From: Balanoglossus misakiensis
Lineage: Eukaryota > Animalia > Hemichordata
Direction: 5' to 3'
Length of the DNA: 64,000 nucleotides
Assembly (NCBI GenBank): GCA_040954595.2
Contig: CM082585.2
Coordinates: 10,342,564-10,406,563, forward strand
Below the pieces are notes generated by a model, which made no database searches, was not told the origin of the DNA, and was given only the letters and a program-made list of their open reading frames with translations. Shown here piece after piece: positions 3,815-52,147 of the stretch. A program made the position numbers and the translations under genes. The first letter of the stretch is position 1; each line of letters begins with the position of its first letter.

Positions 3815-6341
3815 TCAGCCTTGCATGGCCACTGCTGTGACTTCATTCTCTTGATTGACAGGTATTTCTGCCATCTCTGCTGGTGGTGGTTCTTCGCTGG
3901 CATCCTGGCTCTCCACAATCTGCATGGCCGCCGCATCCTGGCTTTGATCCATCACTTCCACTTGCTCTTCCACATACTTCACCGTTTGAATTTGATTTCC
4001 GTCTTCGTCGACAAGGCGCACCTTCAATAAAGAGAGAAATCAATTGAAGTTAAGATCTCAACCAGAGACTTTTGATTCAGAGATAACGTGCAAATCATGC
4101 CTTGGACGAACTGACAATGGAGACTTGTCCCTTTTGGGAATAAGCAAAGTGTAGTGCAGCACCCCTTATGGGGCAAGGAACCAGTCTTTGTTGTACCTGG
4201 CCTCCATCCTGTGCATACTCAATGACCACTTCTCGGACGCTGCCATCAGTGTCACAACTTTCAAGCTGTGGAATTACGATCACCTGCTCCTCACTGGATG
4301 TTTCTTCAACCTGCCAAAACAATTGCAAACAAAATCAATCAAAGTGGTGTTCAACATCATAATTTTTTCTCAGATGCCTTTGTCACAGGTCTGTATTAAC
4401 AGGATTGTTTGAATTTTTACAATTGCAATTTGCACATTGTTCTCCATTTACCTGCTGTTCTACATGAACTTCCCCACTCTGACTGACAGCTTCTGTTTCC
4501 ACTGTGTGCGTTATGACTTGGTTCTGCATTTCAGTCTGGGCTTGGTAAGCAGCAATGGCATCTGAGATTTGCGACAATGCGTCTTGTGTTTCGCTTGGCT
4601 CTACTGTGGCGACATTGTGGAAGTCTGCAACACTGACGTTCTGGATGCCACTGACATTGACTGGCAACTGGTACTGTTGAGGAATGTGCTCCTTAGCGTG
4701 GACCTTGAGGTCGGCTTTCGAGCTGGTCACGTACTCGCAGCTGGTGCATTTGTAGACGCGCCCAAGTTGGTGAGCTTTGATGTGTGATCGCAGCCGCTGC
4801 TTCCATGAGGTGGTGAACTCGCAATAATCGCACTTCATCTTGACGTCTGAGTGTTTGGCTTGATGCGCCGTTAGATGCTGCTTGTTCGCTGTGGAGTAAT
4901 CACACTTCTCACATTTGAAGGGTTTGACGCCAGTATGCTTGGCTATGTGTACGTGCATCTGCGTCATGTTGATGGCCGAGTAGTCACAGTGACCGCATTT
5001 GAAGGGTTTCAACGTGGAGTGTGTCGCCATGTGGCGCTTTAGACTGTTCTTATAGCCTGTCGTGTAAGTGCATTGATCACAGTTATAGACTTTATCTGGT
5101 GGTGATCTGTTAGGTTCGTGGGTCAATAAATGTCTCGTCAAGCTATGCTTGTGAGCGGTGGCATATTCGCAAAGATCGCACTTGTAGTTCTTTTCTTTCG
5201 GAGGTTGGTCATCCCGGTGTTTTGCTTCGTGGTTTATCAGCTGTTGCCTGTGGGCGGCACTGTACTCACAGAAGGAGCACTGAAATGGCTTGACGATGGA
5301 GTGCCGGAGCTTGTGAGAGCGCAGATTTTGCTTGGTGTTGGTGGAAAAGTGGCAACCTTCGAAGTCGCACTTGAAAGGGCGGAGACCGTCGTGCTTGTCG
5401 ACATGAGCTTTGTAGCTGGACTTGTACTGAGTAGCATAGTCACACATAGAACACTTGAAGGGTTTCTCGCCACTATGAATGGCGATGTGAGTTCTCAGGT
5501 CCTGTTTCCTGGCCGATGCATAGTCGCAGAACTCACACTTGAATGGGCGTAGACCCTGGTGCTTGCTGGCCACGTGGTGCAGAAGGCTGTGCTTGTAGAT
5601 GCTGGAGAAGTCGCATTGGTCGCACCTGTAAGGTTTCTCTGGGTCGTGCTTCTGCATGTGAGTCCTCAAGTCGTGCTTGTACGGGGACACGTAGTCGCAT
5701 TGCGTGCACTTGTAGAGCTCGCTGTCATCAAGTTTCTGGTGTCGCTTCATGTGCGTCTTGAGGTTGTACTTGTGTAGTGTGGAGTAGCCGCACTCATCGC
5801 ATGTGTGCAGTTCCTGCTCATCAGACTTCCCGGATTTTGCCGATTTCGCCCCGCCTTTGTCACTTCCCTCAGAAGCTTCTTCACCGTTTTTTACAGCACT
5901 GGGTGAGGTCTCGTTCTTTCCTTCACCACTCTCTTCAGCATTTTTGTCTGAACCAACAGGAGAGGGTTCAGCTCCATCAGCAGTGGCTCCCTGTGCCTCT
6001 ATTCTGATCACATTCTTGTCGCCGCCACCACCCCCAGCCTCTGCTTCCTGGACTTCACCTGCACCACCCCCATCACTGGCTGCAATGCTTGCTGCAGCCT
6101 GCCGCAAGTCGAAATCTGTGATGATAATAATCGCACTTCCCTGGCCAACATCTTGTATCTGAATATTACCATCCCCTGCAGCAGATACCAGTTCTTGTAA
6201 GTTGCTTGGTTTTTCGCCCTGCTCCCCACTTTTCCCATCAGAAACCTGAGCAGGATTGGCATCTTCTATGTGGGGTTTCTTGTTCTCAGGTTCGTCTGCA
6301 TCACCAGCTTCATCGGCTTTCCTTTTGCCCACTTCTGGCAT
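3815..6341 (-). CDS. C2H2 zinc-finger protein with 13 fingers (CxxCDY-type, REST/ZNF142-like finger style); coding exons 6341-4452, 4310-4197, 4021-3815
   Basis: 13 C-x2/4-C...H-x3/4-H repeats with GEKPF/GLRPF-type linkers; ATG at 6341 just after an acceptor; phase-0 GT-AG junctions join an E/Q/V-rich tail ending VAMQG*; KRK...KKP bipartite NLS-like start. Confidence 0.9.
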
Positions 6342-7299
6342 TTTATACGTGCATGTGACACCAAACCTGACAAGATTACAGGAAAATACATGCATGTGTT
6401 TTAATACAGTATTACTTGAACTGGACTTGAACTTGAAGCAGAAACTATCAATTCCAGGGATCATCCTCAACCCAATGCATTCCTTTCCACTCTTGAATGC
6501 ATCACTAAATTAAAAAAGCCTAGTGTATTTTTCACCTCATCCATAGAAACACCAAACTGCCCTGCCCCATAAAAGGTATGTATGACTAGGCAGTCACTCA
6601 TGTGAGGGGCTACAAATGCTGTGTGATTTTGAATGGTCTCAGGCTTGTCTGCAATGAGCATTGTATTAGTGTATGTATATTGTTAGCTATGTGTGGCAGG
6701 GCTGTGTGTAGGCATTGCCGTAAGACATGCAGCCCTGCCATGCAAAGCTTGTATTATCTCAAGAATCAACAGTGAACAATAACACCTTTTCCACATGTGA
6801 ACACATTTTATTAGATATTTCATACATATTCCGCTATGTACAGATTTTTAAAATGCAACTGACAGTGTCAGTTGCCAGAATATACAGTGCACACAATCTG
6901 TATTAACTGCGGACAATCCAATAAGTCACGCTAGAAAACATTCAAATGTAAAACGTAAGGCTATCAGCATGCAAACGCGTTTTCTAAATGCATTCACGGG
7001 AAGCTTATACAGATGGCGTCTACAGGCAGTGCGCCGTTGCATTTTGATAATAAGTTCAGTTCAGTCGCCATATTGGTTGCCAACTCGTACCGCCCCGAAC
7101 GATCGTGCCGATAATTTTCACAAATCAGGGTACTCATGGACAGAGGTTTGCTGCATTCACGGACTAAATCTACGTCGTCCTTGCTAAAACAGTTACCAAC
7201 CTACAAAATGCATATTTTGACCGTTACCTAAGCGTGTACATAGAACAGACCAAAAGCAAATACTTTCCCTCCAGAAAAACGACTGTTAATGGCGCTCAG

Positions 7300-7790: not shown

Positions 7791-8076
7791 ATGTTATGTC
7801 TCGTCTTACTCTGCTTGACCTTGTGGCTTCGAATGACCTCTCCTTTGTCGTATACAATTAGATGTGAAGATGTATGATGTCGATTTCGAACTTAGCAATC
7901 CCTCCTTTGTATCTACTTTGTTTGATTGCACACTTGAAACTTGAAAGCGATATGATCGCAGATGCATGTTGATTGCATATTAAATATGGCCGAATTTTAC
8001 ATCTGATGTGTTTCCATTCGTAATATCTGCTGATACTTTATCGTGGCATTTTTATTTGCATCAGTAGGTCATCACC

Positions 8077-9843
8077 ATGGCAACTGCATCTGGCACAGAT
8101 GAGAAGAGGCTATCGACAGGCGAGACTATTGATTACAACAAGGGTAACCATCCCTCCTATGTTCTGAAAGGTCTTAATGAACTGAAGTCGTTGGAGCTGT
8201 TCACAGATGTAACCCTGGTCGTAGGAAACCATGAATACCCTTGTCACAAAGCGGTGCTGGCGTCGTGTAGTCCTTATTTCAGGGCCATGTTTACCAACGA
8301 TATGAGAGAGAGGAACGCGGACCGCATCCAAATCAAGGATGTACATGTGGATGTGATGAATGACATAATGGGGTTTATTTACACCGGCAAAGTCTCCATC
8401 TCGCCGCAGAATGTCCAGGCTATCTTCGAGGGTGCCAGTCTTCTGCAGGTGCATTCGGTTCAGGATATCTGCGTGCAATACTTTGAGCGCCTGCTGTCGC
8501 CGAATAACTGTTTGGGAATCCTGGACTATGCTGACACCCACGGCTGTAAGGAGCTGCAACGCAAGGCCAGGCAGATGATCCTCAATCACTTTGCTGATGT
8601 GTGCAAAAGTGAGGAGTTCATAATCTTGCCAAAAGATCGTCTGATCGAGATCCTCGCCAGTGATTTGTCCATTGACACCGAAGAGACAGTGTGTGAAGCC
8701 ATCACGGCGTGGGTGAACCATGACCGCACATCAAGGGAATTATTCTTGGCTGATTTGATCGCCCATGTCCGGCTTCCTTACCTCTTGCCTGCATACCTTG
8801 GCAAGGCTTCCAATGATTCGCTCCTCAAACAAGTTCACCTTGGCGCCGCAAAGGACAAGATGTTGGAGCGGACCAGGACCTATTATGCTAAGTCCAGGGA
8901 TAAAGCTGTGACGAGCTTATCAGCTGTCAAGCCTCGGAATTATACGCAGGTTCTGTTGACTGTCGGTGGTCAGGACGTAGACCTGCAACCGGCAAATTGC
9001 ATCTGGTGTTACGATCCCATCAAGGAGAAGTGGAGCTATCTGTATGAACTTCCGGATGAGCTTTTCGACTGGGATCTTGCCGTCACGTCTCTCGGAACGG
9101 ATGTCTTCATCGCTGGGAAGAGACCACTAATCAGCTCGTTATCTCCGGTGTTTCCGGCGTGGATTTACAAAGGCATCAGTCAGCGTTGGATGAAAGTCTT
9201 GCTCCCTCAGAGCCTGGAGATGGCCGAGTTTGCGGTGACATCAGACGGTGCTGGTATTGTCTACATCCTCGGTGGATACGACTCCAACATGCGAAACTTG
9301 GCCACTGTGAGGCGTTACATTGTCGCGACTAACACGTGGGACGAAATGGCTCCCATGATGATGGCTGTCAGCAATTTATCAGCCACGGTCTGCGAAGGCA
9401 AGCTGTACGCGATCGGAGGCTACACCGGCATTGATGACACCAGCATTGTCCAGTGCTACGACCCGACCTTGGAGAAGTGGAGTTACGTCAAGCAGTTGCC
9501 AATGACAGTCCGAGATGCGGTGGCTCTTACGATTGACGATTCGATCTACCTGCTGGCTGGCGTGGCCAAGAGCCTGGTGTATCACTACAATCCAAGACTG
9601 AACAAATGGAAACCACTGGAGGGAATGGCCAAGGAGGTCTTCATGTACGGCGCCACGGCCTGCAACGGTAGCATCTATGCCGTGGGCGGATACTCAGGGG
9701 ACTATTTTGACATTGAAGTGAACAAACTCATCCAGATGTACGATGCTGAAGAAGATCGATGGACGATAACGGAAAGCCTCCCTCACGGCCTGCATAGTCT
9801 GAGGTGTACAACAATGTATAGATTTGCAGCATTGGGATCTTGA
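8077..9843 (+). CDS. Kelch-like BTB-BACK-Kelch protein (probable CUL3 adaptor, KLHL24-like group), single coding exon, 588 aa
   Basis: FTDVTLVVG..YPCHKAVLASCSPYFRAMFT (BTB), NCLGILDYAD and EETVCEAITAWVNHD (BACK), repeated YxxGG...YDP...W Kelch blades; strong Kozak ACCATGG. Confidence 0.93.
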   Translation: MATASGTDEKRLSTGETIDYNKGNHPSYVLKGLNELKSLELFTDVTLVVGNHEYPCHKAVLASCSPYFRAMFTNDMRERNADRIQIKDVHVDVMNDIMGFIYTGKVSISPQNVQAIFEGASLLQVHSVQDICVQYFERLLSPNNCLGILDYADTHGCKELQRKARQMILNHFADVCKSEEFIILPKDRLIEILASDLSIDTEETVCEAITAWVNHDRTSRELFLADLIAHVRLPYLLPAYLGKASNDSLLKQVHLGAAKDKMLERTRTYYAKSRDKAVTSLSAVKPRNYTQVLLTVGGQDVDLQPANCIWCYDPIKEKWSYLYELPDELFDWDLAVTSLGTDVFIAGKRPLISSLSPVFPAWIYKGISQRWMKVLLPQSLEMAEFAVTSDGAGIVYILGGYDSNMRNLATVRRYIVATNTWDEMAPMMMAVSNLSATVCEGKLYAIGGYTGIDDTSIVQCYDPTLEKWSYVKQLPMTVRDAVALTIDDSIYLLAGVAKSLVYHYNPRLNKWKPLEGMAKEVFMYGATACNGSIYAVGGYSGDYFDIEVNKLIQMYDAEEDRWTITESLPHGLHSLRCTTMYRFAALGS

Positions 9844-33101: not shown

Positions 33102-36100
33102 TTAGTATAACAGTGCTCCCAGCAGCATGATAACCATGGCAACAATCAGGCTGACTTTCGCCGTTTCTTTTGGACCTCCAGAAACTGTTGACAAAATTGA
33201 GAAAAAAAGGCATATTACTGTGACTTTCCATATTCAGACTTGACATGACTGGAAGATTCTGTCGTGTGCAATGATTGTGAACATAAAAAGCATGTGCGAG
33301 CAATGTTTGTCCAGGCAGGGACTTAAACAAGCTGACCTGACCAAGCCTAGTGGACCCTACAATGCAAATCTTGTCTCTATTATTTTCTCAAATCTGACAA
33401 AACATCACATGAAACAAACAATGGGGTAAATAACACATACTGTCCAGATCCCAGCCCGGTACATCTCCATTCTTCTCATTTTCGGCATCCAGGTATTGGA
33501 TCAATGGCGCAAAGTAATCCATTAATGGCCGTGCATCCATTTGTCGACTTCCGGTTAAAGCTTCCATTGCCTCCGGCCATGGTTTGCTTCTTCCGAGCTT
33601 CAACATGTCGCTGTTATGGAAAAGAGGTAAACAACTTGTATTTAATGTTCTGTCATGTGAACTTCAATTGTTATGTTACTTGGGATTTGACATTTTCTGT
33701 TCTACCATTCATTCATGAGTAATTTGCATGTATTCTTCTACATCACCTGTTGAAAGATAACAGAATACTGAAAAAGACTTACGCAAGTTTTTGCCCCGCC
33801 GCAGTTGATTCGTGGATATCGCATCGATGCAGCGGCACGTCACTCTGTCCAGCCAAATCACAGAGCGCCTTATGGAACTGAAACTGTATGATGTAACTTA
33901 TGAAATACCTACCAAACAAAAGAATTTGGAAAAAAAGTTAGAATTACAATACATTGAAATTGATGAGTGTCTGCTTAGATAGGATACTGCTTATTTTGCA
34001 GTCATTCCCATTCTTTGGGACCTGTTGTCATTGTTTTCAATTTCGTTGGAAAAAATAATTTATATAAGTCTAGACAAGACCCACCTGATGTAGGGCGTGT
34101 TGCTGTTGATGTGGTATTTTGCTGCAGGATCAAAATCATCTTCACTTCTTGACACTGGTGGCGCTATACCTTGGTATCGTGTTCTGTTGGTCGAAATTGA
34201 TAAAGGGATAGTCAATCATAGATAGATGACCGCCACTTTTTGCTATATAAGTTCCATCTCTGTATGTCAGTGGTCCAAACATTGACAGTACGTTCACTTC
34301 TAAAGACGACATACCTTAGCTCCCACCACTTGGCATTGTAATTCTCGGGTGTTATTTCGCCAGCGTAGACATCCCACCTCCAGAGATCCATAAGCAAGCC
34401 GAAGGGAAGAAATATTATTTTCTTCAACGCTTGACTCATCAGATAGTTCAGGTCGGACTCTGGGTGGAACAGAGTACAAACACGCGAATAAAAATGGGTG
34501 AACCTCATTTTCCATAGTTTCAACCTTGATCTTGGTCCATCAAATCAATTTTCAAAGTCTCAGCCCATCAAGGAGGACAGACGCATACCTGTATCATCGC
34601 CAACTTCGTCCAACAACCCTATTTTCTTTAAATGTTCAGGTGTAGACACAGACAATGACAGAACATCACCCACAGCTTCGTGAAACCCAGAATTTGCACC
34701 CCTGCGGTAGACAACTGGGTGATGCTTGTACTGAAGATAATATTGTACGTGGCCCATTTCATGATGAACTGTGATGAGGCTCTGCATAGTTATGTCTGTA
34801 CACTGTTTGATTCTATAAGGAGATTCGAATTAGTCCAAGAGAAGATTTATGTTAGTCGTTTTTACCATTCATGGACGGATACTAATTAAATCACTCGTTT
34901 ATCATTCTAAAGTTGTACAAAACTAAGAATTGTGCTAAAACGCCTTACTTGTCATGAGTACTGTCCAATTGCGCTCACCAGGTATCGCGTTTTTTTAATG
35001 AATGACGTCGCTGTTTACCTGACGTCCCTTGCATTGTAGAAATCCCAGGCCGATGCATGGCAGACGACTTCTCTGCCATCGTCAGGTTTTTCTATCATCG
35101 AATCGTCCCAAAACGATTGCGGTGTTGCCGCCAATCCCAGCTTCACGAAAAATTCCTCGGAAATCTCGAACATCTGTCGCGCATCGTATCCCTGTAAAGT
35201 AAATGAATTGAAACGTAATTCCACTGTCAAATACTCTACCCCCCCCCCCCTCGAAATTAATTGTTTTCCCTTATCCCGATGCAAAATGGGAAAAATTGGA
35301 GCTGGTGTCGGTTGACCTTACATCGTCTTTTAGTTTCTGAGTGACGTCCACTGTTGGTTTCCCAGGAAACGGTTCCACAAGGTCCAGGATGTTGTTCCAG
35401 GTCTGAGCCCACATATTACCTGTGAAGTGAAACACAGTATAACAAGCCGAACTTCGTGAGTTTTACAACTAGCGAAATCTATGCATGCTGCTCTCAGGAT
35501 GGAAGAAAGTCCTCAAATCTTACCCAGCAAGTGGGCAGGAATTGGCCCAGTCAGATCTACTTTATCCTCTCCGTAATGTCGACTTAGTTTTCTTCGGACA
35601 TAAGCGTGCAGTTTCTTGTAGAGTGGTTCTAGTTGTTCATACAGCCTGATGACGTCACCTTCCAAATCGGCCACGTCATACGAGTACCGAAGATACTCGC
35701 CGTAGTCGGAGAACTTTACATCTGCGACGGAAGCGAAAATGCAAATGAACTGTGCAACAGGTGGCTAGGATGCTTTGACAGACAGGCACCGGTACCTGTC
35801 CAGTTCATGGACCCCATAGTCTAACAGTTTTTGTCGGGGAGTAAGCATATATAGGTTTACAAAAGTCTGCCTCAATACACTATTGACCAATTGTAAAAAC
35901 TTACCATTTGCATTGGCAGCCTTGTTGGCCAACTCAACAAACCGAGTGTAGGTATCACGTGTTGGTTTACCGGCCTGGTCTCGCCAACCTCGCCAACACC
36001 ATAAAAGTTCATCATAATCTCGACTGTCGGCCATAATCCTAGTCAGGTCTGTAAAAACATGCAATTCTTTACATTCTCCATTTCAATTTCGGACTGTACT

Positions 36101-37908
36101 GATACCATATACTAAATTTATCTGATCGATAATATTTCCATATGGAGCCTGAAAACAAGTTCGCAATCTTTCAATCAGTCGGGCTTTATTAAGACAAGCG
36201 AGGGATCAAATGGAACAAAAGTCAGCACAACAATGTCGAGGGAGATATCTTTAAATCATAGATAAACATGTCACAAGCAAGACAACCCATTGTTATCAAC
36301 AATCGTTATCGTTTTTTTTTTGACATCAAGAAAAGCCTTTATGGTTCGATAAATATGTTTTTCTGCTTATCGTACATATTGTGCGCATATAAATTCTCCT
36401 GCTATCTCATATCGAATAAATCGGCGACTTTTAGTCTGTCGGTGCTATAGCACATTGCCCCGTGACCCACTTTTTAAAATATTCGCCTTTATTTTTACAA
36501 GTTACGTCAACCTTCCGTCACAGTTCAGCGATATCGTCTAACAGTATTGGATTGTAACTTTACCTGGTTCCAGAGAGAAACAATCTGTGGGTTCGTGGCC
36601 AGGACGCCCGCACACTTTAGCTGTAGAATATGTTTTCTTCATAGTAGAGATGATAGAATCATACTGCCATAAAAATTAATAAGAGTAATTAATTTAAACA
36701 TAGATGGATATGTCTGTCACCATTAAAGGGACAGTAGATGTATAAGTTGCCTTTTGTTTGGCAAACCGTGAGAGTTAAAAATGCCTCGCCGATTTTTATG
36801 CAAATAAAACGAGTCAAATTTTTACAGGTACTCCACCTCGAGTTTCTCGTCACTCGGTAAGGCAGCACTGCCGATGTAGAGCAGAAACTCTAGTTGTCGG
36901 TTGGTGTCGTATCCGAAGCCAGTCCGGTCGAAGAGAGACGCGTTCGCTCGTGCCTCTTTGTCGAATACTGCGCTGACAGAACTGGCTTCAAGCTACAAAA
37001 AGTAAGAAGAAGAAAAACGGTGATGACAGCACCGCTAGATTTCCATGAATGGATGGAAGGAAGCGTCCTCAACAGACATCAGATTTGGATAGTTTTGGAT
37101 TGCCACTCTCCATCACAAAGTTTACGGACATTAAATTCTGACTGTGTGCTTTAGTACGTGCAGTAAATCTCCTTAATTGTTTGCTCAAATTCTCGAATGT
37201 TTAAATAAGCAAAATTCCACATTCTATATACTCCATAAAACGTAACTTGAACATTCCTAGTCATTTATTACCACGCGATGAACTGTCTAATGTTCGGTGA
37301 CCGCACTAATATGAAGAAATATTGAAAGAAGAAATGTGACCAAGATAGGAAAGTTCAATCCAAATGGCTTCGAATGCAAAAGACGACATGATTCTTATTC
37401 TGTCGCCAAACTTAATGACCCTTTAAGCTACATTGCTGCGCAGAACTTGAGGCTATTTTATGAGGTACCTGGGTTTTGGATGAGTTTTACTGGGAACAGA
37501 TGTGAATCCGTGCGCATGCACCTGTTCGCGGACAATTTCATTATCTTTCAGTAACCAATTGGGATTTAGGAAAAGTTCATGGACAGCTTAATATTTTCGA
37601 TTTTGACCGGAAAATTCGGTCGAGAATATATTTTGCAAGACGCAGTGAAAGGTGCAAGATATTTTCAACGGAGAAATTTAAGAGCCGGAACGCCCACTTA
37701 CCATTTTCTGTTCGTTGTAGTCAGTGATGTTGGTATTGTAATTCCAACTGGCCAGAGTGCTCTCGTATCGAACTTCTTGGGCTTGATTTGAAACTTCCTG
37801 CAAGAATAGTTTCGCCTGGTCTTCATCTGATATCAATTGGCCGAGGATGCCGTTCGCGGTGGCCGCCACGAGACACCAAAAGACCAGCTCCAGTTTCCGT
37901 CCGCCCAT
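33102..37908 (-). CDS. ACE: Angiotensin-converting enzyme-like peptidyl-dipeptidase (peptidase M2), single catalytic domain, about 13 exons, signal peptide, hydrophobic C-terminal tail
   Basis: Signal peptide [20 protein letters not shown]; [10 protein letters not shown]; YSTAKVC; [16 protein letters not shown]; [15 protein letters not shown]; [13 protein letters not shown]; intact zinc motif HHEMGH and EAVGD; FDPAAKYHI; [11 protein letters not shown]; final exon 33184-33102. Confidence 0.93.
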
Positions 37909-40296
37909 GGTTAAAGAACCGATAGAACTAAATACTTTTGTGCGCGGCGTCAAAGCGAGGTCACTTCGGACTGAAGTGCAGCGGACAATCTCCGCGCTTT
38001 GTACACAAATCAGACACGGGGGCTACCACACCTGTTACTGTGTGTCTTCAAGATCTTAAAATCAGATGGCCGACGAAATTTAATAACTTCTTGACACCAG
38101 GATTTGTTCAAGGTCGATCAAGAATGTATGTCAATAGCTTCACATCAAAACTCCAGTCGAAATTATTCTGTATTCTATCATTACGCATGTTGATATTTCG
38201 ATGGATTGTCTTCTTGTATCTGTGTACAATATTTTTCATGACATGAAGTTTTCTTTCAGCAGACGAAACCTCTTAACTTGAGACATGTAAAAGTAATATG
38301 GTCAAGCCAGGGTTCAGGACAATGAGTAACCATGGTAACGTTGTTCCATGCGTGGGCAAGCTGGTTTTATTCCGCTAGGAAAATGAAAACACGTTTGCTT
38401 CATCAGCAAGATGCGTTGATTTGTGTACTTCTGTGCCAGGGATAAGCACGTTCCGTAAAACACTGAGCCAGCCTCAAAGGCACGACATTGACATCTGCTG
38501 CAGTGTGAACTTTCGCATATTGTCGGCCATCTGCAGATGTAGTTTATATCAAAGCCAGCACAAATGAACCACGTCATCAATCTGGCTGCCTGTGACAGAA
38601 TTTGTCGGCTGACGATTTGTCAAGCACATTCCCGAGTCCAAACTCAATGCTTTGACGTGTAAGACGAAACCCCCCGTCGCTAACGGTCAAGTTTGGCCGA
38701 TGTTTAAGTGGATGTTTTTGTGAAGCACTTTCAAAGTCTACAAAATAACAGTAAAATTGTGTGCGGTTGCTACACCCCCTTGCGTTGGAAAGTCGATACA
38801 ACAGACAAACAAACAAGTATACCAATGACGCAAAACTAAAAATACTGGAACTGTTAAGAAACCCCTCCCAAAGCGACAAGGTGACTTACAGGGAATCAAT
38901 TTAGTTAATTTATACCATTTGATTTATTTTGGGTTTTAATGGGTTTAGGTAAAGAGAAACACTGTAAATGAAACATACTCATTTAATAATTTGGTATAAA
39001 ATTCAGAATAGGAAAGAAATGGACCTTACCACCGGTTTCTTCCTGGTTGTTGCTCATGTAACGACGTCATGTTTGGTATGTGCCATAATTCATGATTCGA
39101 GTATCAACATATTTTCGTATTTTGTTGGGAAACAAAGAATCCCTCCACAAGACTCAGCAAAACGATCTTCATAACTTGTCGACATTGTGGAAACATAGGA
39201 AACATATCACATCATTCAATCAATGTTTTAAGTCATTTGTTTTTTAGTTTTTCTCATTTCAGTCTACTTGAAGTCGGTTTAGAGGGGTGTTTACTGTAGA
39301 TAAGGCCAGCGAAAGGTCCCGAGCTGACGACATCGAATTCTTGATGACCTACTTGATACGCATAACGAGAGTGTACCATACACAAGCAACTCCGAGTTGA
39401 GTTTGTAAGAAGATCTCTGGTGTTGAACGTACTGGCTGGAGACAATTCTGGCATGTGAAAATTGTTGGGGATTTTGAATCACCCCTGTGTCGCAAAACTG
39501 AGGATAGGTTTTATATCATCGATAAAAGACGCGTTTTATGGTATCACGACTGTTTATTGATCTCTGATAAAAATCTGTCAAGCATCGGACGGACGTCAAT
39601 ATACTTTTTAATGTTTAGTTACGCCTGCATAGTTAATTTGAGTTCACCCGGCCGTTAATCTTATCTAAGAGCTATACCTGTATACGTGCATAATCCTCCC
39701 GAAAATTCCTGAGCAAAATTTCGTGACCTCCCTAAACACCTGCAAGAAAAAGACCCCCCCTCCCCCGTTATCATAATTTCCTACGTGTATGCCTCAGTCA
39801 CATTCCTAACAATGAAACCAACAGGCCCCGTAATCTTAAAATCTGTTTTAATACAATTTAAACTATTTAAAAGCCCACAGAAATTTTGATTTGAAGAAAC
39901 CAGTTTGCCAAAAGTGTTTATGCGCCCTCTAGTGTTGGTGACCCGCCCCTCGCAACCCATGCACGTGCATGCTGAGCTCCCGGAATTGTACGAAAAGTAC
40001 ACAGACTGACAGCGACGGTTTACAGGAGTTTTCAGTGACTCGCCAGGCGTCATTTCAGGAGGACATTAATGTAAGTTTTGATAATGAAAAGGGGAAAGCC
40101 TTGGGTTACTGATGGCAGGGACTTTTTTTGACATTTTCATTTGGCGTTGCAACTGTAACAGTTTGCAATGCAACATTGAAAGCATGCATGTTCTTCCAAG
40201 CCCGGCCTTCCAAGCCGCTAGGCGTGGTATGTCGGACGGATTTAAAAAAAATCTGGTTTGTTTGTATCATTGGGGTTTTCCAGCTAACATTTTAAG

Positions 40297-43200
40297 ATGG
40301 AATCAGTTGTTGATGAAGCTGTACAAAGAGGGGAAGGTGATGGTATTGATCAGCGACCAGGGGTATGTGTTATGCCAAAGGATGAACCTGCATCATCATC
40401 ATCATCATCGCCAAAACAGGACAAAGGTCGTAATACCATTGCGTTCAGAGTCAAGGTTAAAGTGAAAGGTATGTTTCTAGGACAGGTACCCCCAGGAATT
40501 TACCCACAAGTCTCGCGGTCTCAGCCCAGTCTCGATTCTCGCCCAAACTGCAGTGGGTCATGGCAGTGGCTAGGCTGGGGGTAATGGCCAGGGGGTGACC
40601 ATCCTAATACCAGAGGGTATCCTTGGTGCTTAATAGTCCAGCACCTATCTTGCCTTTTGCTTGGAACATTAAGGGACAGCATTTCATTAAAAGTTCTGGA
40701 GTTTTGAATGACTTGAGCATGGCATGACTAGTAGTGTAATTTTAAAGGCCAGAAGTGTGCTGCAAGTTTCAGAAGTTGGGTCTTCCCTCGTGAAAAATTC
40801 AATCAAAATATCATCAAACGAAGGTAACATCATCATTTCAAAATATATAAAGATTGTTTCCGATCTGACATGACGTGGTGTCTCCATTACAGGATGTCCT
40901 GTTGATATCATCAAATGTGAGGAAATCTCTCAGGGGGTGCCACAGTATGAATTGCTGTGGAATGGAGGAGATGATCAGCTGAAGTCGATTTTGAAGTGGT
41001 TTCAGGTATGTTGCTGTCCGGTAATACCGTTGCTAATCAATTCTGATACCAAATACGACTGCTTGTTTCCAAACTGTTTTGCGGTCCGCCAAACAACATG
41101 ATTTTTCAGTGCAAACCAATCATGTTTCGGTGTTTCCACTAACTTTCCTCTGAACAGCCGCATAGGGGACAGTAATAGTCCCACGGCTACTGGTTTGACA
41201 GCTTTGACGAGCATCTGTTGTCTCTGGAATTTTTTTTTTACATTTAGGATGAAGTAAAGCCACTTGATCCTGCAGCATTGCTTGCATTCAGCAGCATGTC
41301 GTCACAGGGGAGAGCAGAAATTCACAACGTTGCCAGTAAATTCAACGTGTGGACAACCAGCCATGGTGTGAGAAACACGGTAAGATGACCTCAGACAGAC
41401 AAATGAGGTGGCTGACATGAAATAGAAACGCGAAGAAAAAATGGCTATTGAGTTTAGTTTTACCCAGAAATCGACTGAACGCTCACCTTGAGAGTATTCC
41501 TTTACATAAAGCCAATCCCATCTTTTTTGTCATTTCAGAGATCTGTGAGTGTTTATACCAACAAAGCTTACGTTCCATCCAAGAAAGGAAAGAGGATAAG
41601 GGAGATACGACAGGAAAGCAGAAGGATTCTACTCTGGATACGAGATAATTATGGAAATGTTCCAGCAGATAATCCTGTAATTATTCTTGTCTATTTTTAC
41701 GGAGTTTGAAATGTGCATAAGATGATCGTTGGTCTTTAACTCAAGTTGACATTATATATAGGGCAAGCCATCAATTTTATGTTATTTTTCAATATTTTTG
41801 AGCAGTACTCAAACAATGAGGTGTATGAAATGCTTGCAACAAGAACGATGACTGAAGATTTCAAAGAGATGTACGATGTCTACAAGCGAGCGTCTCAGAT
41901 CGGGCATAAAAAAACAGAAAAGAAAACACCCAAGAAAATGGATATTATGGATGGAGTTACTGGTAACTAGTGGCTTTTCACTTTATTGTCACTTTATGAA
42001 TTAAAAAAAAAGATAAATTCAGCACAGAAATATATCAAACTGCCCGTGTCTTAGAATTGGTATAGCGTTATTGTGGTACACAATGGCATTAGGTTCAAAG
42101 AGCAAATGGGCCCACTTTGAATATACATTAAGTTACGAAATTTCTTAATAATTACAATATATGTTGATTTCTTCAAGATATTGAGTTTGTCCAGCCAGAA
42201 GATGGTACAATGGGTCACTTTTTCATCAACAAACTGGCCTGTGATGCAGAAACGTAAGTTATGAAAGATTTTGGATGAAACGGACTGAAAGATGGTGATT
42301 TGAAGAAAGTTGAATGTCTGGGCAATTTCATGGTTAGACCTAGTCTCTCTGAGAGCCCGATGCTGTGGCTTCAGGATATGTTCATACAGTACAGTACCTG
42401 TTTCAGTTGTTTGTAACTCTCTCGTCTGCCGTATCATTTTGTTTCAGTTTGTTCGAGTTTCCCAACCTAGGTCTCACCAAAGTGATGAACTTTGACGAAC
42501 TCGTGCCATTGGAGGATCTGCAATCAGTTCTGATTACCACTGATGCATGGTTCAACAACTCGCACTACGTCAGTAAATATTTCCCGAAGTCTGTTGATGT
42601 CACCGTAGTTTGTCCATCGGTAAGTCCATGGTTACCCAGCCAACTGGATTGGACATGGTTTTTTTCTACAGTCGCAGATATGGGGGAGAAAGGAATAGTT
42701 CCAAACACTGCATGCGAAATCAATGAGAATGTTCCGTCTTAGTCTCAAATATTTTTTCTTACCAACCAAACCAACTTTTTTTCTTGCAGCGTTTCAAGTT
42801 GCAACAACCAATCAAAAAGACCCTGATTGACTGCCCTGAACATCGCCGTGACTACACCAAATTATCTGACGTCACTGGAGAGTTGCGGGACGTGGAATGC
42901 GGTTGCCCAGAGACGAGACGCATCATGCTCATCCACCCAAAGGAGAAAGTGAATGCCAAGTTGATGATAGCGAGGTAAGGTAATGTTAACCTGTGAGGCT
43001 GTGCAGATCACATAAAACACAAAAAACAGACGTGGTTTCCACATAGATAGTTCTCTGGGTCCAGAAATGCCTTTTTGTACTGTTTTGTTATTATTCTCTC
43101 ATTATTATATTTCAGATACAGTTCACATGCCCATATTGCGATTGGTTCAGCCTCGTTTGACAATGTGTCCTGGGAAAAAGTTGGACAATTTGGATGGTTT

Positions 43201-46200
43201 TGTGATCTTCCCATGGATACTGTTGCAACAAGTGACAAGATTGAGAACTGTAAGTGAGGGGGGAAATACAAAAGTTTGAAAAAAAACTTGCATAATGCAA
43301 CATTCTACTGCGAATACTGGGAAACTGTGCTAAATTACATGAATTCAGATTTAATTGCGAGTGTTTTAATTCACTCTTCATCTTCTTAACCAGGTGATGT
43401 TGGTTTTGGCAGAACCCTTCTGAATTTCCTGGCTTGTCTCTGTCCTGATCTTATTGAGTTCCTGCAAGGGATCGTGCTATCCCGTCTCTCTCCGACTGTG
43501 CAACTTGTTTCGTCCGTTCCGGGTGCTTTTCCAGTGCGAGGTTTGTACGGACATCACTATGGATTTTCAAAGCTTGGAGCATTACTTCACAAGATACCAT
43601 GGCCAAAGGGAAGCAAACCAGCTGTGAGTACTTTTCTAGTTTAGACTCTGTTTTATGAGAGCTGTCTTATCTCCAAACTTTCAATATTTTAGCAATTCAA
43701 AAATTCTTTCTTTTCAGCTGCTGTACCAGACACCAGTCGTTGGCTACGAGAGAAGACTGTTCTCATTGCTGACTTTACTGAACAATATGTTTGACACCAA
43801 GTACTTCACAGAGGTTGACATGAGGAAACCCTGGGATTGGCTTCACTCCAAGTTGGACAGGGACACTCTCAAGGTGAGTGTGAAGTTAATTTCTGGGTAA
43901 AAAAGCCAGCGCCTTTTTCATCCAGCCATTTTTCTTCATGTTTCTAATTTATGTCAGCCACCTTAATGGACATAAAACCATAGCTCGATCACTGGTTGTC
44001 TACCCAGCATGCACCCCCACCATTGGTAAATTGGAAAAGTCTGGGTGGTAGATGTCCAGAGATACCCTTATCACAGCTTTTAGGTTAAGTCTCCTCTATT
44101 TTTCTTCAGATTTTGTTTCCATGTGTCAGTCACTCAGGCCAAGTCACCACGAAATACCAGTTTACAGAGGGACTGAGAAACCTCTCACATGGCAATGGGT
44201 ATGAACAATCAAATGACATGATAATCATATTGAATACATTTTGTACCATGATATTAGTGATGATGATGAGATGATGATGTTGATGTTGACAAACACATTT
44301 TTCTCATTTACAAAATATGACATTCTAAAAATGTTCTTTTTGGATTTGTCCTGGTTCACGTAGCCTAATAGAGTTGAGACTATTCATGGCCGAGAATGAT
44401 GACCCTTTCTTTGGTAAAATCATATGGAATTCTAGGGTGAGTCTGAAGTACTATTTTGTTTTGATGTGGATTGCTGATGTTTTCAGTGATGAAGATAGGA
44501 AAAAAGAAACTGATACTTTCTATCAACATTGTTACTTTGTCGGCAATGCTCTAATTTTCATTTTATAATGCAGATTGTTTGCAGGCTGTGCAATGTGAAG
44601 GATGCAGATCCCGATAAAGGTAAAGATGATTTTTTTCAGAAAAATAATGCAGGCATAATACGGTACTATAGACTTTTTTCTTATCCAGCATGCATTGCAG
44701 CAGGAAGTTAAGCAAGGGTGGCTTGTACACCTGGCTTATGTAGCAGAATAAGGTTGATGTGTTCATGTACGCACAAATATAGAAACATGAATGAAAAATT
44801 CCTGAAAGACTTCACTTGTATGGAATTTTCAGGCACCCATCGCTATGGTTGGCTGTTCGTTGGTAGTTACGATTTGAGCAACGACAATTGGGGTGAAGTC
44901 TTCAGTAACGGTCAATATATTCGATGTAGAAGCTATGAACTAGGAGTTCTGCATCGTCCATGTTTAGTGGATGACCCAATCAAAGGTCAGATTTTAATTA
45001 TTTTTATGCAAATGAAAAGAAAAATGTAAGGTTGATGTGTATAATCTCTTCCATATTGTGCCACTACCTAGAAATTTCTATTATTTGGCCATGATTTTTA
45101 CTGTTGTAACAAAATTTCTCTAAGACTGCTAGCAAGGAGTCTGTCATTGACAATGCCTCTAATTTTGTCTAATTTTTCATATAGGTACAAAGTATATAGC
45201 CCCGGACTTCGTGCACATAACATTGCCATTCAGGGAAGACCGTATCAAGTCCTACCCATGTGGCGCATACCCAGTGTCCCTTCTGCGAGAGCCACCAACT
45301 GGGCCTGTGTCAGAGGAACCCGACCATGCCAGTATCCTTATTGGTAGATTTGTGCCTGGGCAGTTTAACCAATCGCGGCACTTTATAAGGCCAGTGGCTG
45401 AACCGACCAATGAAGAAGAAGCAAAGTTCTTCAGGTTTGTTATCAAAATTGTAGTTTTAGTGAGGCAGCGACTTGAGAATTCAGAAGCACAGTGAGTTGT
45501 CAATTCTCGGGCATGTCGAAAAAATAGAATCCCAGAATTTACCATTTTTCTGTTTCATAGAGATCACGAAATGGCAAGGTGGAAATGTGATGTTTGGCAC
45601 TCTGGGCTGGTCAGCGTAAGTGATTATGTTATCCGGAATTTTCAAGCTGAATTCCACAAGCCACTGAGACCTGGAATGCTGCTAGCATTTATTGGCATGA
45701 AGAGGAACATCATCTGGAAATGTTACTGGGTACTGGACGTCTGTGAAACAAGGTAAGCCAGAATATAACTGAGGTGTTTTATCATTATTTAAGTTTTTTA
45801 GCTCCTGTATGGTATATGAATATATACCAGTGGGAGAGCTAAATTACATTTGGCATCGGTCTGCCTGTCCACTGCGAAAATGCAATGTTCTTCCAAGACA
45901 AATCTTTAACACAGTCTCTGTCTTGCAGAAGTGAGATGGTGTCAGTTGGTGATCAGAAGTCATTTGAAGACAATAAACCCAAGTCTTCTGCCTCTTTTGG
46001 TGGTAGCCATGGTGATGATGAGGTAAAAGGAGACTGGGACAAGAAAGTTCAAATTCCAAAGTAGGTAGCTCATGTTGGCTCATGGGATCAGTTGGTGTCT
46101 GTCAAAAGCTTCAGTGAAAGAAATTAAAATGTATTCTTGGGTATGTGAAACTGTTTAGATGGTTTTGTGAAAACTAATGTTTTCTTCCATTTGGTGGAAA

Positions 46201-46451
46201 CTTCTCTCAACAGGATAAAGTTCTATGGTATGAAAGTGATTGGATTGGATGTAGATGCTCGTACATTGACAAAGCCACGGGTCATGCCAAAGTTGGTCCG
46301 TCCGGAACCTCGGGATGCCTACATCAAGAGACTTCTCTCTGACGTGTACGGCATCAATACCAACAAGAGGGAATCACTCCGTGGACCGACCAGCATCCAT
46401 TACCGGAAATGTGTCCTGAAAGCCACAAAGAAGAGATTCCTGATAACCTAA
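40297..46451 (+). CDS. Uncharacterised ~945-aa multidomain protein: R3H domain, catalytically degenerate TDP1-like (PLD superfamily) domain, possible OB-fold C-terminus; 19 coding exons
   Basis: Exons 40297-40468, 40893-41005, 41248-41379, 41539-41676, 41806-41962, 42178-42253, 42448-42619, 42790-42974, 43116-43249, 43394-43623, 43718-43873, 44110-44198, 44364-44436, 44574-44619, 44833-44985, 45185-45434, 45561-45752, 45929-46060, 46214-46451 are all GT-AG, phase-consistent and stop-free (2838 nt). R3H: FSSMSSQGRAEIHNVASKFNVWTTSHGVRNTRSVSVY. TDP1-like blocks: NAKLMIARY..HIAIGSASF...W..VGQFGWFCDLP, FGRTLLNFL, VQLVSSVPG, YGFSKLGALL, ILFP, GWLFVGSYDLSNDNWG, IRCRSYELGVL. AATAAA at ~46749. Confidence 0.82.
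40474..40610. mobile_element. Degenerate MITE-like remnant in the first coding intron of the R3H/TDP1-like gene
   Basis: Left TTCTAGGACAGGTACCCCCAGGAATTTACCC is an imperfect inverted match to right GGGGGTAATGGCCAGGGGGTGACCATCCTAATACC; no clear TSD. Confidence 0.35.
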
Positions 46452-46997
46452 CTTTTGAACTCCGACCTTTGAACCTACGAGGACTGTGGAAAAAAAAAAC
46501 TTTATTATAGATAGTCCAGGTTTTTCTGTTTTGCTTGAGCAGAATTTCACCAGTTAGTTTAACTATTGCTGTAGAATTTGGTTTCCCTTCTGACAAAGAA
46601 CAAGCGTTTTGTATGGTAAAATTGGATCTGTATACAGGATAATAGGGGTGAAAGGGTTAAAAGTCTGAGACGACCAAGGCAGAGAAGGAGGATGGGGTAG
46701 AGGTAGCGCACTTAGGCCTTAGATTTCTTTTGAGTTTGTGACGTTCCAAATAAAAGTAATGCAAACATCACCATTGTCTTTTACTTAACAGCTATTTCCA
46801 CCCTTTTTTCGCTTGCATTAACACTTGTAATTTATTAGCTGAACTTTTGTGCAAGAATTAAGGCCCATTTTAATTTAAAAAGTGCACTGACTTGGTCTCA
46901 AAATGGTTTGGACCCCTCAACATGCTAATTAAATGCTGATTGGAAAATTGCGCCCTCAATGTCAGCATAGAAAAGAATTACAAACACACAAACCAAG

Positions 46998-48604
46998 ATG
47001 GAGTCTGTTATTGGCGATCGCATGGTCGAACTTTCGTCATACAGAGACCAACATTTTAAGGTAAAGATGAGTTGATATATTTATATGCTTGAGATAGAGA
47101 GTGGCCGAGTTTCACCTTCCTTTCGGCCATGGCAATAGGTTTGGCCTTTGCTTTTGAGGCGCGCAAGCTCAAGGGACTGGGATTACAAAATACAACAACA
47201 AAGCCAGTTACCCCAGTGTGTTTTAGATAGACACTCTGTGTGTGAGTTAGCTGCAATGATTGTAGCGGGTGCTGCTAAATTGACTGGTGTGTTCGCAGCA
47301 GTCAACCTAGCAGCACCCGCTACAATCATTGCAGCTATGTGTGAGTCTATCTAAGGCACACTGACTGGGGTATGGATACTAGGCTACACTAGCCACCACC
47401 TACATGTAACCTGACCAAGTTCAGTTGTTTAATAGAAGAAGGGAGACTGCGGTGCTCCATTGTGCTGCATAGACTCTGACAACTCTATGCTCATAGATCT
47501 GATTAGAGAAAAATTCTCCGGGTCAAATATTCTTACTTTAGTTTCATTTTCCTCTTTCCAGGGAACACTAGGAACCCAGGAGCGTCTTTTAAAGAATAGC
47601 ACAACGCTCTACGTGGGAAATCTATCATTTTACACCACAGAAGAACAGATCCATGAGCTCTTTGCAAAAGGTGGCGACTTAAAGCGGATTGTTATGGGCC
47701 TGGACAAAATGAAGAAAACGCCTTGTGGCTTTTGTTTTGTTGAGTATCCTTTGATTTAAAAAAATGAACACAATGTTGAAAGGATTTCAGATAGTCTAAC
47801 TCTAAAAAAAATTAAAACAAATTTCTTTTGAGGTACCGGGATACCTATACAATCAAGTAGAATTATCCACCTTGTCTGTAGCAAATGTGTATAAAGAAAT
47901 GGGCACACCACTAGCAGCTTAACAAAATGATCAGATATTACCTTCGGAATGATGCTGAAAATGCGATGAGATACATCAATGGGACCAGGTTAGATGACAG
48001 GATTGTGAGGACAGACTGGGATGCTGGCTTTGTTGAAGGGCGGCAATATGGCCGAGGCAAAAGTGGTGGCCAGGTAAGAGAGTGACCTGTCTTGAATTGT
48101 GGTCAGTGCGGGCATTGTTGCCAGGAGAGGTGGTATAAAAGATGATGTTTGAACATTTTCACCTTTTTTGTCATTACGCTTCAGCTGAGATCAAACTAGA
48201 AACTGTAGTAGACACTCAAAAAACATAAATACAGAATAAGTAACTAATACAGTCAAACCTGTGTTAGTGACCACCTCTATATAGTGACCACCTCTATATA
48301 GTGGCCACTTAGTTACAGTCCCTGTACAATTTACACGTGTATAAATTAACCTGTCTATAAAGACCACCTGTCTATAAAGGCCAGTTTGGTAAAGTCCCTT
48401 GACTGGCCACTATAGACAGGTTTGACTGTAATAAGATCTGTAAGATAACAAATCTAATGACTTGTTTGGAAATTTGTCTCATTTCAGGTTCGAGATGAAT
48501 ACAGAACAGACTACGACAGTGGCCGGGGTGGATATGGCAAAGCCGCACTCAAACAACAACAAGCAACTGGAGTGACACAAATTCATCCATGGGGGTACGC
48601 ATAA
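46998..48604 (+). CDS. NCBP2: Nuclear cap-binding protein subunit 2 (CBP20); exons 46998-47060, 47562-47743, 47935-48073, 48488-48604
   Basis: [95 protein letters not shown] closely match CBP20. Confidence 0.97.
47248..47337. repeat. 39-bp-arm hairpin with 12-nt loop in NCBP2 intron 1
   Basis: 47248-47286 pairs with 47299-47337 at 37 of 39 positions. Confidence 0.9.
47744..47934 (+). other. U12-type (minor spliceosome) GT-AG intron in NCBP2
   Basis: 5' splice site GTATCCTTT; branch-like GCTTAAC at 47917-47923, 11 nt before the end of the intron; no polypyrimidine tract; removal restores FCFVE-YY. Confidence 0.9.
48250..48428. mobile_element. Tc1/mariner-pogo-type MITE in NCBP2 intron 3
   Basis: TIR CAGTCAAACCTGT...ACAGGTTTGACTG, TA on both flanks (48248-48249, 48429-48430), internal ~17-bp subrepeats CTATATAGTGACCACCT resembling the TIR interior. 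Confidence 0.88.
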
Positions 48605-50535: not shown

Positions 50536-52147
50536 CTATATTTGTTTCGCCCCTTTCTTGCTTGGGGTCGTGTACCGACTTCTCAAGTCTCTGGTGAAAA
50601 TATACTCCGGCTTGACCATATTTACGCACACGGCGTTTTTCTTGGCGCTATCTTTCAGCTTGTATGCGACGGCCCGGCTGTTAGCAGGGCTCCAAACGTT
50701 CGGGTTTTCGTTCAAAATCTCGTCGACGCACTCTCCGTACAACTTCTCGTTTAATTCGCGTAATCTCATGACTTCTCGTCGCATGTTTTGCTTGCCGTAT
50801 TGATTAATCAAGCACAGCGTTTTCTCTCGGAAATATTGGTAAAGTTTGGCATCGCCCGCGTTCCATCGCAACACGTGACTGTCAAGACCCTCCGCTCCCG
50901 TGTCCGTGAACTGCGACGCCGCACTTCGGACGTTGTGCTCGAAATATGCCACGTCATGCATATCAAGGCATAGGAACTTTCTCAGCAAAATGAGTGATTC
51001 GTCGAAATATTCGCTCAGGATGACGAAATCAAATTTCTTGTCTAAATATTGCACATATTTCTCAATCTGTCGCAAGTACATCATTTCCTGTGGCGGTATA
51101 CCCAAGTCGTACAGCATGGGGTTCCTGGCCCATTTGCGGAGATGTTCGGACTGCAGATTGAAGTATTTCTCCGGCCTCTCGATGAAATTTTTGAAGGAGG
51201 ATTGAAAGCTGTTGCCGGGGACCCTGAAGAGCTTGTCCAGCTGTGCATGCGTGAAGACGGACTCGAAATGCGTGGTGGGATCGCGAAGTATCGTGATGTA
51301 CGCTGCATCCTCGGGAATAACAGAAGAAAAACCTGGAAGAAAAATTAAATATGACTTTTAAAGAAAAGATCTTTTTGATAAGATGTAGGTGAAATTGCAA
51401 CAACAAACGAACATACCTATTTCGCTAAATCTTGCGTAGTGACAAAGAATATTAAAACTCTCTGGTGTGTTGTTGCTCTTCATCATTTGTGATCTCTGGA
51501 ATGGTATCCCGGAGACGCCGGCGAACTGTATCCCAGACGACGGCAATACAAACTTCAAGCCGTGTTTCTCGCCGTATCGGAATAACAGGTTCTGTACGGT
51601 GCTGCTTCCCGTGCGGCGGGTTTTTAGAAAGAGAATGTTTTTCTTCAGTTGGCAAGGTTTGCGGCTTCGCAGCCATTTTGGAGGTGGCGAGCAGTCGTCG
51701 AGAATACCGTTCATATCGGAGGTTGGAGGTTGGCCGTCTATTCCATCAGTTTCGTTGGGGGACATCCGCGTGTTGCGTGCTTGTAAAACCCCGGTAAAAG
51801 ATGTGTTGTGAACGTTGTTTGAAATGATTGTATTAACCGCGGATCCATGTTGATTCCCTCTGTCAAACCACCTGTAGAATAAAGAAAACATAATATCAAT
51901 CTAGGGAGGGGATACTGCATTTACTTTATCTGGGTAACGAAAGAATGAAGTTCATTAATAGCTCAAACAGGATAGTGCATTTTGTTCCCTCTTGTCCCCA
52001 AAGTTACCTGCTTGACTTGTCTCGGCTCTCAAAGACACGGTGGTTGCTTGCACTCGACAGAAGTGTGGGGAAACAACAGATGACAGAAAAAATCAACAGG
52101 AGTGCCAGTAATATGCTGTATAAACGTCTCCTCTGATGACGTAGCAT
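50536..52147 (-). CDS. Galactose-3-O-sulfotransferase (GAL3ST family) type II Golgi membrane protein; exons 52147-52008, 51871-51417, 51332-50536
   Basis: Basic N-terminus then signal anchor (MLRHQRRRLYSILLALLLIFSVICCF); ILFLKTRRTGSSTVQNLLFRYGEKHGLKFVLP; FNILCHYARF; YITILRDPTTHFESVF; NPMLYDLG; FDFVILSEYFDESLILLRKFLC; WNAGDAKLYQYF. Confidence 0.88.

Follow-up and report, generated by a model that had tools for sequence, protein, structure and literature searches.

The 64 kb window (the whole stretch of Balanoglossus misakiensis DNA analyzed here, 64,000 nucleotides) carries on its forward strand an intact and maintained gene of 19 exons, which are listed in Table 1 with the domains that they encode. 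Splicing these exons in silico yields a coding sequence of 2838 nt, which specifies 945 amino acids and ends in a single terminal stop. All 18 introns have GT-AG borders and lengths of 94–424 nt, and their splice sites stand above the background of the same stretch: the donor has a purine at +3 in 16 of 18 introns (vs 45% of 403 background GT) and G at +5 in 15 of 18 (vs 23% of background GT), the acceptor reads YAG in 17 of 18 (vs 45% of 399 background AG), and the T fraction ahead of the acceptors is 0.60, compared with 0.30 in the background. The GC content is 0.45 in exons vs 0.37 in introns, retention of any one of the 18 introns introduces at least one in-frame stop, and the remaining five frames of the spliced coding sequence contain 30–68 stops each. 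The sequence-only reading of this DNA, which had placed 19 GT-AG exons here and predicted a product of about 945 residues, is thus correct in its coordinates and length. We note, however, that the exons were chosen by eye such that the frame was preserved, making the open frame alone a partly circular proof, and it is for this reason that the homologous proteins discussed below serve as an independent check.

A strong donor follows position 40070 (in 39969–40070, forward strand), and the start codon at 40297 abuts a T-rich AG acceptor, with 40071–40296 lying between the two; an additional exon is probably present upstream of 40297. An in-frame ATG at 39969 could provide 34 extra residues, though both homologues start in the same way as the 40297 start. 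A plausible poly(A) signal of this gene, AATAAA, lies ~300 nt past the stop codon.

Table 1. Positions of the gene, its exons, the domains of its product, and neighboring features in the window.
Feature	Positions	Strand	Basis or remark
19-exon gene; product with R3H, pseudo-TDP1, beta-rich and basic C-terminal domains	40297..46451	+	splicing, homologue alignment
Exons 1–5	40297–40468, 40893–41005, 41248–41379, 41539–41676, 41806–41962	+	
Exons 6–10	42178–42253, 42448–42619, 42790–42974, 43116–43249, 43394–43623	+	
Exons 11–15	43718–43873, 44110–44198, 44364–44436, 44574–44619, 44833–44985	+	
Exons 16–19	45185–45434, 45561–45752, 45929–46060, 46214–46451	+	
Beta-rich segment before R3H, aa 48–83, exons 1–2	40438..40969	+	10/36 columns invariant
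R3H domain, aa 84–147, exons 2–4	40970..41562	+	Pfam R3H
Likely helical segment and unconserved linker, aa 148–237, exons 4–5	41563..41961	+	invariant columns: 13/66 in aa 148–213, 0/24 in the adjoining linker
Two-lobed TDP1-like (PLD-superfamily) domain, aa ~238–710, exons 6–16	42178..45288	+	PF06087, human TDP1 chains
Cys335-x-x-His338 ... Cys357-x-Cys359 cluster (candidate zinc site)	42832..42906	+	invariant in 3/3 proteins
Degenerate catalytic motif 1: H263=Asn375, K265=Lys377 (kept), N283=Ser395	42952..43155	+	human TDP1 alignment
Degenerate catalytic motif 2: H493=Phe601 (inferred), K495=Lys603 (inferred, kept), N516=Asp638, S518=Ser640 (kept)	44410..44879	+	
Beta-rich domain, aa ~723–824, OB/cold-shock-like by pattern only	45325..45932	+	18/102 columns invariant
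Conserved basic C-terminal domain, aa 866–945	46056..46451	+	27/80 columns invariant
AATAAA, plausible poly(A) signal	46749–46754		
Angiotensin-converting-enzyme gene	~33400–38000	-	Pfam Peptidase_M2
RRM gene	~47020–48600	+	Pfam RRM_1, E 3.7e-10
Nested inverted repeats	47214–47363		42-nt arms, 93% complementary, 6-nt loop; outer 19-nt arms
Galactose-3-O-sulfotransferase gene	50536–51900	-	Pfam, E 6e-42
Long single-exon frame	4383–6509	-	
Long single-exon frame	8068–9843	+	

Homologues in Two Acorn-Worm Families

Two proteins known as NCBI gene models, both "uncharacterized" there and originating from two different acorn-worm families, are homologous to the spliced product: one from Ptychodera flava (P0001, 991 aa, 50% identical to the 945-residue product over 933 aligned columns) and one from Glandiceps talaboti (P0002, 978 aa, 41% identical over 922 aligned columns), with 42% identity between them. 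Both are colinear with our product from the segment before R3H through the last residue; of the 18 exon junctions, 14 align without gaps to both homologues, and the other four have 1–4-residue indels. As both homologues join the R3H-like and TDP1-like parts colinearly, the single chain is borne out by independent gene models, and the fusion proposed in the sequence-only reading is thus found in two further species; a split between the two parts, which would have counted against that reading, is not seen in these models. Within the window, tblastn searches with both homologues gave matches in this gene only, in order.

These models also weigh on the very unlikely case that the fusion is an artefact of gene prediction, with two adjacent genes in its place, or a short isoform that stops in intron 5 and carries R3H alone, apart from a TDP1-like transcript. 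Reading through exon 5 does reach a stop at 41968–41970, with ATTAAA at 42000 (within 41963–42005), and the acceptor of junction 5, which falls in the linker in which no column is invariant, is the single one of the 18 that does not read YAG; however, intron 5 is just 215 nt long and joins in frame, and the two NCBI models, being independent and from different families, join the same parts. Similarly, the view that this is a decaying TDP1 duplicate without current function, for which the loss of the active site and a family known from three sequences might be cited, is largely refuted, and we leave it almost no probability: the frame is intact across 19 exons, and conservation is domain-wise among proteins that are only 41–50% identical. 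Among the three proteins, the TDP1 lobes and the C-terminus have 34–44% invariant columns vs 0–15% in the linkers, and 194 of 473 columns (41%) are invariant in the TDP1-like domain vs 10 of 112 in linkers, the linker regions for this last count having been picked after viewing the alignment. The earlier proposal of a maintained gene and not a decayed duplicate agrees with both the intact frame and this pattern.

In a search of 1.84 billion representatives with the 76 aa of exon 10, two proteins were found at E ≤ 0.001, those of P. flava (E 7e-12) and G. talaboti (E 6e-7), and when 5.8 billion proteins were searched with a profile (lengths 537–1735, 3611 candidates, pre-filtered by words from the first 500 residues), the same two acorn-worm proteins alone were returned. 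As the first query was just 76 aa long and the word filter of the second search also missed canonical TDP1, distant relatives in other phyla may exist. A literature search, covering largely the main texts of papers outside subscription, found no description of an R3H-TDP1 protein, a TDP1-like pseudoenzyme, a hemichordate TDP1 or the Glandiceps locus tag. This accords with the sequence-only reading, which did not recognize the architecture from any named family; it is apparently an undescribed TDP1 pseudo-enzyme architecture, with three sequences so far, although the gene tables of genome papers could carry both homologue models without comment. Since the database domain labels of both homologues list PF06087 alone, neither R3H nor the loss of the active site would show up in automatic annotation.

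N-Terminal and C-Terminal Domains

The sole Pfam match of the beta-rich segment at residues 48–83 is chromo, at chance level (E 0.078). In the R3H domain that follows, an RxxxH helix (Arg117 at 41311–41313, His121 at 41323–41325) precedes an S-x-G hairpin with a second Arg, and both Arg137 and Arg140 are invariant in the three proteins, such that an invariant Arg lies 19 residues past the motif His. Pfam R3H (PF01424) matches exon 3 with E 3.9e-5 and 24.0 bits, over model positions 21–49 of 60 only, and residues 97–156 of the P. flava protein with E 9.1e-5 and 22.9 bits, both scores being lower than the gathering cut-off of 26.8 bits; the full-length G. talaboti protein has no Pfam R3H match. 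The SMUBP-2 R3H entry, from a domain that reportedly (by the title of a study) has 5′-end specificity, was matched at E 0.31. The RxxxH motif is present in two of the three proteins, with Arg/His in the window protein and P. flava and Glu/His in G. talaboti. We therefore regard R3H as well supported by sequence in the window protein and P. flava and as degenerate in G. talaboti, and the R3H called "clear" in the sequence-only reading is supported less firmly than put there, given the sub-cut-off scores and the Glu that replaces the motif Arg in G. talaboti.

R3H domains bind single-stranded DNA or RNA through the motif Arg and His and a further Arg located 20 residues beyond the His, as described in the available part of the source (PMC12408800). 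The present domain resembles the R3H domains of SMUBP-2/IGHMBP2 (PDB 1MSZ/2LRR) and KhpB in its RxxxH helix, S-x-G hairpin and second Arg, and differs in its partner, which is a helicase or KH domain there and a dead TDP1 here, as well as in its Pfam scores and the absence of the motif Arg in G. talaboti.

At the other end of the protein, the beta-rich tail noted earlier is present, but its possible OB-fold is not confirmed: the predicted model has a pLDDT of 39.7 and no structural match, and there is no Pfam match to this domain in the exon scan or in either homologue. The C-terminal domain (residues 866–945) contains 20 Lys+Arg vs 6 Asp+Glu and is 58% and 49% identical to its counterparts in the homologues; it gave no match to a known family. 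This domain and the invariant Cys/His cluster go beyond the features noted in the sequence-only reading.

A TDP1 Fold without the TDP1 Active Site

PF06087 was matched above its cut-off of 22 bits by exon 10 (23.1 bits) and exon 15 (33.6 bits), in a single-exon scan that covered 17 of the 19 exons (exons 6 and 14 were left out), and in one stretch by each homologue, with 81.7 bits in P. flava (E 7e-23, model positions 76–406 of 445) and 82.2 bits in G. talaboti (E 5e-23, positions 40–407). Chains of human TDP1 structures match at E 2e-10 in two stretches, in order. These comparisons make the assignment of a TDP1 fold solid, with the two PLD half-domains following each other in the TDP1 order within a single chain, in line with the colinear TDP1-like domain described from the sequence beforehand. 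A profile match to TDP1, the lack of which would have refuted that description, is thus present.

According to the available part of one study (PMC5778467), TDP1 is defined by the motifs H263-K265-N283 and H493-K495-N516, its activity is reduced 3,000–15,000-fold in the H263A, H493A and H493N variants, K265 and K495 take part in binding the substrate, S518 contacts a DNA phosphate, and the DNA groove is lined by S400, S403, S518, F259, P461, W590, K410, K469, K519 and R535. At motif 1, the H263 position is occupied by Asn, Gly and Ser (in the window, P. flava and G. talaboti proteins, respectively), K265 is Lys in all three, and N283 is Ser in all three; the PDB alignments begin one residue past H263 and are gap-free to N283, such that the H263 assignment is a one-residue ungapped extension. 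At motif 2, alignment to human TDP1 gives Asp, Gly and Gly at the N516 position and shows S518 kept in all three proteins. We take the invariant Lys603 to be the equivalent of K495, based on TDP1 topology outside the tool alignments, and the corresponding H493 position then holds Phe, Asn and Phe. No His is found within 6 residues of this position in any of the three proteins, no HxK motif is common to them, and the only invariant histidines of the domain are His338 and His665. Among the ten groove residues, four were placed, with S400, S403, P461, W590, K410 and K469 outside the comparison: S518 is kept in all three proteins, K519 is lost in all three, R535 is Arg, Lys and Tyr, and the F259 position is non-aromatic.

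With H263, N283 and N516 replaced and no His near H493, the protein lacks the motifs that define TDP1, and thus, judged by motifs, it is a TDP1 homologue outside the TDP1 enzyme family, a maintained pseudo-enzyme that retains the fold, such that the term "pseudo-TDP1" of the sequence-only reading was apt. As both catalytic histidines are absent, no phosphohistidine intermediate would be formed or resolved under the known TDP1 chemistry. An active enzyme with rewired chemistry, acting, for example, through a metal site at the CxxH...CxC cluster or through a relocated residue on 3′-phosphate or cyclic-phosphate ends, seems to us improbable. The strong constraint on the domain (41% of columns invariant) would fit such an enzyme, as would the Cys/His cluster (a candidate zinc site), which directly precedes motif 1, and the H493 register was inferred rather than tool-aligned; set against this, the three proteins have no HxK in common and no invariant domain histidines beyond His338 and His665, and their catalytic positions vary freely, as released sites should.

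A Putative Non-Cutting Binder of Nucleic-Acid Ends

The reading that we prefer, to which we give about an even chance, is that this TDP1-fold protein, joined to an R3H-like domain, may be a non-catalytic binder of single-stranded nucleic-acid ends. The gene would have originated from a duplicated TDP1. A terminal phosphate would still be held in the pocket, with its kept equivalents of K265, S518 and (presumably) K495, R3H would grip the single strand, and extra binding surface would come from the Cys/His cluster and from the basic C-terminal domain; a DNA or RNA end could in this way be marked, shielded or passed to other enzymes. Of the pathways suggested in the sequence-only reading (RNA surveillance, small-RNA or antiviral pathways, or DNA repair), neither the small-RNA nor the antiviral ones are specifically indicated by the present results. 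An end-binding pocket is favored because these three residues bind substrate in TDP1 and are kept here, although the retained lysines are weak evidence, as 13 of the 28 lysines of the domain are invariant anyway. In addition, H263A TDP1 may persist at TOP1-linked breaks (PMC12663148, available part), so that a TDP1 fold lacking this His could stay on an end.

Several observations speak against an end binder. K519 is lost, R535 is variable, the F259 position is non-aromatic, acidic residues outnumber basic ones in the N-lobe (31 D+E vs 22 K+R), and both asparagines (N283 and N516), also substrate-binding in TDP1, are lost; furthermore, the G. talaboti protein has Glu at the R3H Arg and lacks a Pfam R3H match, and the FAM83 pseudo-PLDs bind protein and not their old substrate (PMC6008594, available part). 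By analogy with FAM83, the dead TDP1 domain could instead be a protein-docking scaffold, with only R3H and the basic tail touching RNA and tethering a partner enzyme to transcripts. We consider this possible but on balance unlikely: the residues at all four His/Asn positions differ from those of TDP1, as do several in the DNA groove, the FAM83 domains bind CK1 in place of substrate (PMC6008594), and R3H is usually found alongside other nucleic-acid-binding domains (PMC12408800), but the equivalents of K265, S518 and (inferred) K495 are invariant together with many further basic residues of the C-lobe, and the sequence comparisons suggest no protein partner.

A more elaborate form of the end-binder reading is a reader of two-ended breaks, in which R3H would sit on the 5′ end and the His-less pocket on the 3′ end, blocked or phosphorylated, of one and the same nick or cleaved RNA. 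A zinc module would lie beside the pocket, and the ends would be shielded or routed to a pathway. This is doubtful, but if true, the protein would be the first natural animal TDP1 pseudo-enzyme with its own function.

Research on TDP1 treats it as a repair enzyme present in a single copy and as a target for drugs. TDP1 engineered to be His-less prevents repair and has harmful effects in human cells (PMC12663148, available part). A natural paralogue that lacks both histidines and is constrained across at least two acorn-worm families would indicate that the TDP1 fold can be retained for a role other than catalysis, probably with a changed substrate preference. The acorn-worm protein thereby offers a ready test of the TDP1 pocket as a pure end sensor and of its cooperation with R3H, with an importance that is limited by its range of three sequences.

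Comparison with Known Systems

In comparison to TDP1 itself (tyrosyl-DNA phosphodiesterase 1; PF06087; human PDB 1JY1, 6DHU), the acorn-worm protein shares a profile match over most of the catalytic domain, the lobe order, and the kept K265, S518 and (inferred) K495, but differs in the replacement of H263, N283, N516 and (inferred) H493, in the K519 and F259 positions, which are not kept, and in carrying, in addition, R3H, the Cys/His cluster, a beta-rich domain and a basic C-terminal domain, at a length of ~950–990 aa vs 608. Among TDP1 duplicates that gained a nucleic-acid-binding domain, the closest precedent is plant TDP1beta, a paralogue with a HIRAN domain that occurs alongside canonical TDP1 and, in the available part of its description, retains His and Lys in each of the two motifs, with HIRAN between the motifs (PMC7762302); the acorn-worm protein, which would likewise derive from a duplication, has lost the histidines, and the domain that it gained is R3H, at the N-terminus. 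The FAM83/SACK1 pseudo-PLDs (DUF1669) are similar in having a PLD-superfamily fold without catalytic elements and a non-catalytic role, but are described, in the part of the source available, as vertebrate-only and CK1-binding (PMC6008594), whereas the acorn-worm protein matches PF06087 and carries nucleic-acid-binding modules. No DUF1669 match was obtained at E ≤ 1 in either full-length homologue or in the 17 exons scanned.

Neighboring Genes

The R3H/TDP1-like gene and, ~2.3 kb upstream of it, the angiotensin-converting-enzyme gene are arranged head to head, and the RRM gene, presumably encoding a cap-binding protein like CBP20/NCBP2, begins ~570 nt past the stop codon of the R3H/TDP1-like gene; given these two neighbors, the window is animal DNA. 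The nested inverted repeats look like a hairpin or MITE-like element in the apparent first intron of the RRM gene, and a Galactose-3-O-sulfotransferase gene lies further downstream. Of the two long single-exon frames near the start of the window, we take that on the reverse strand to encode, by eye, a C2H2 zinc-finger protein and that on the forward strand a BTB-Kelch protein.
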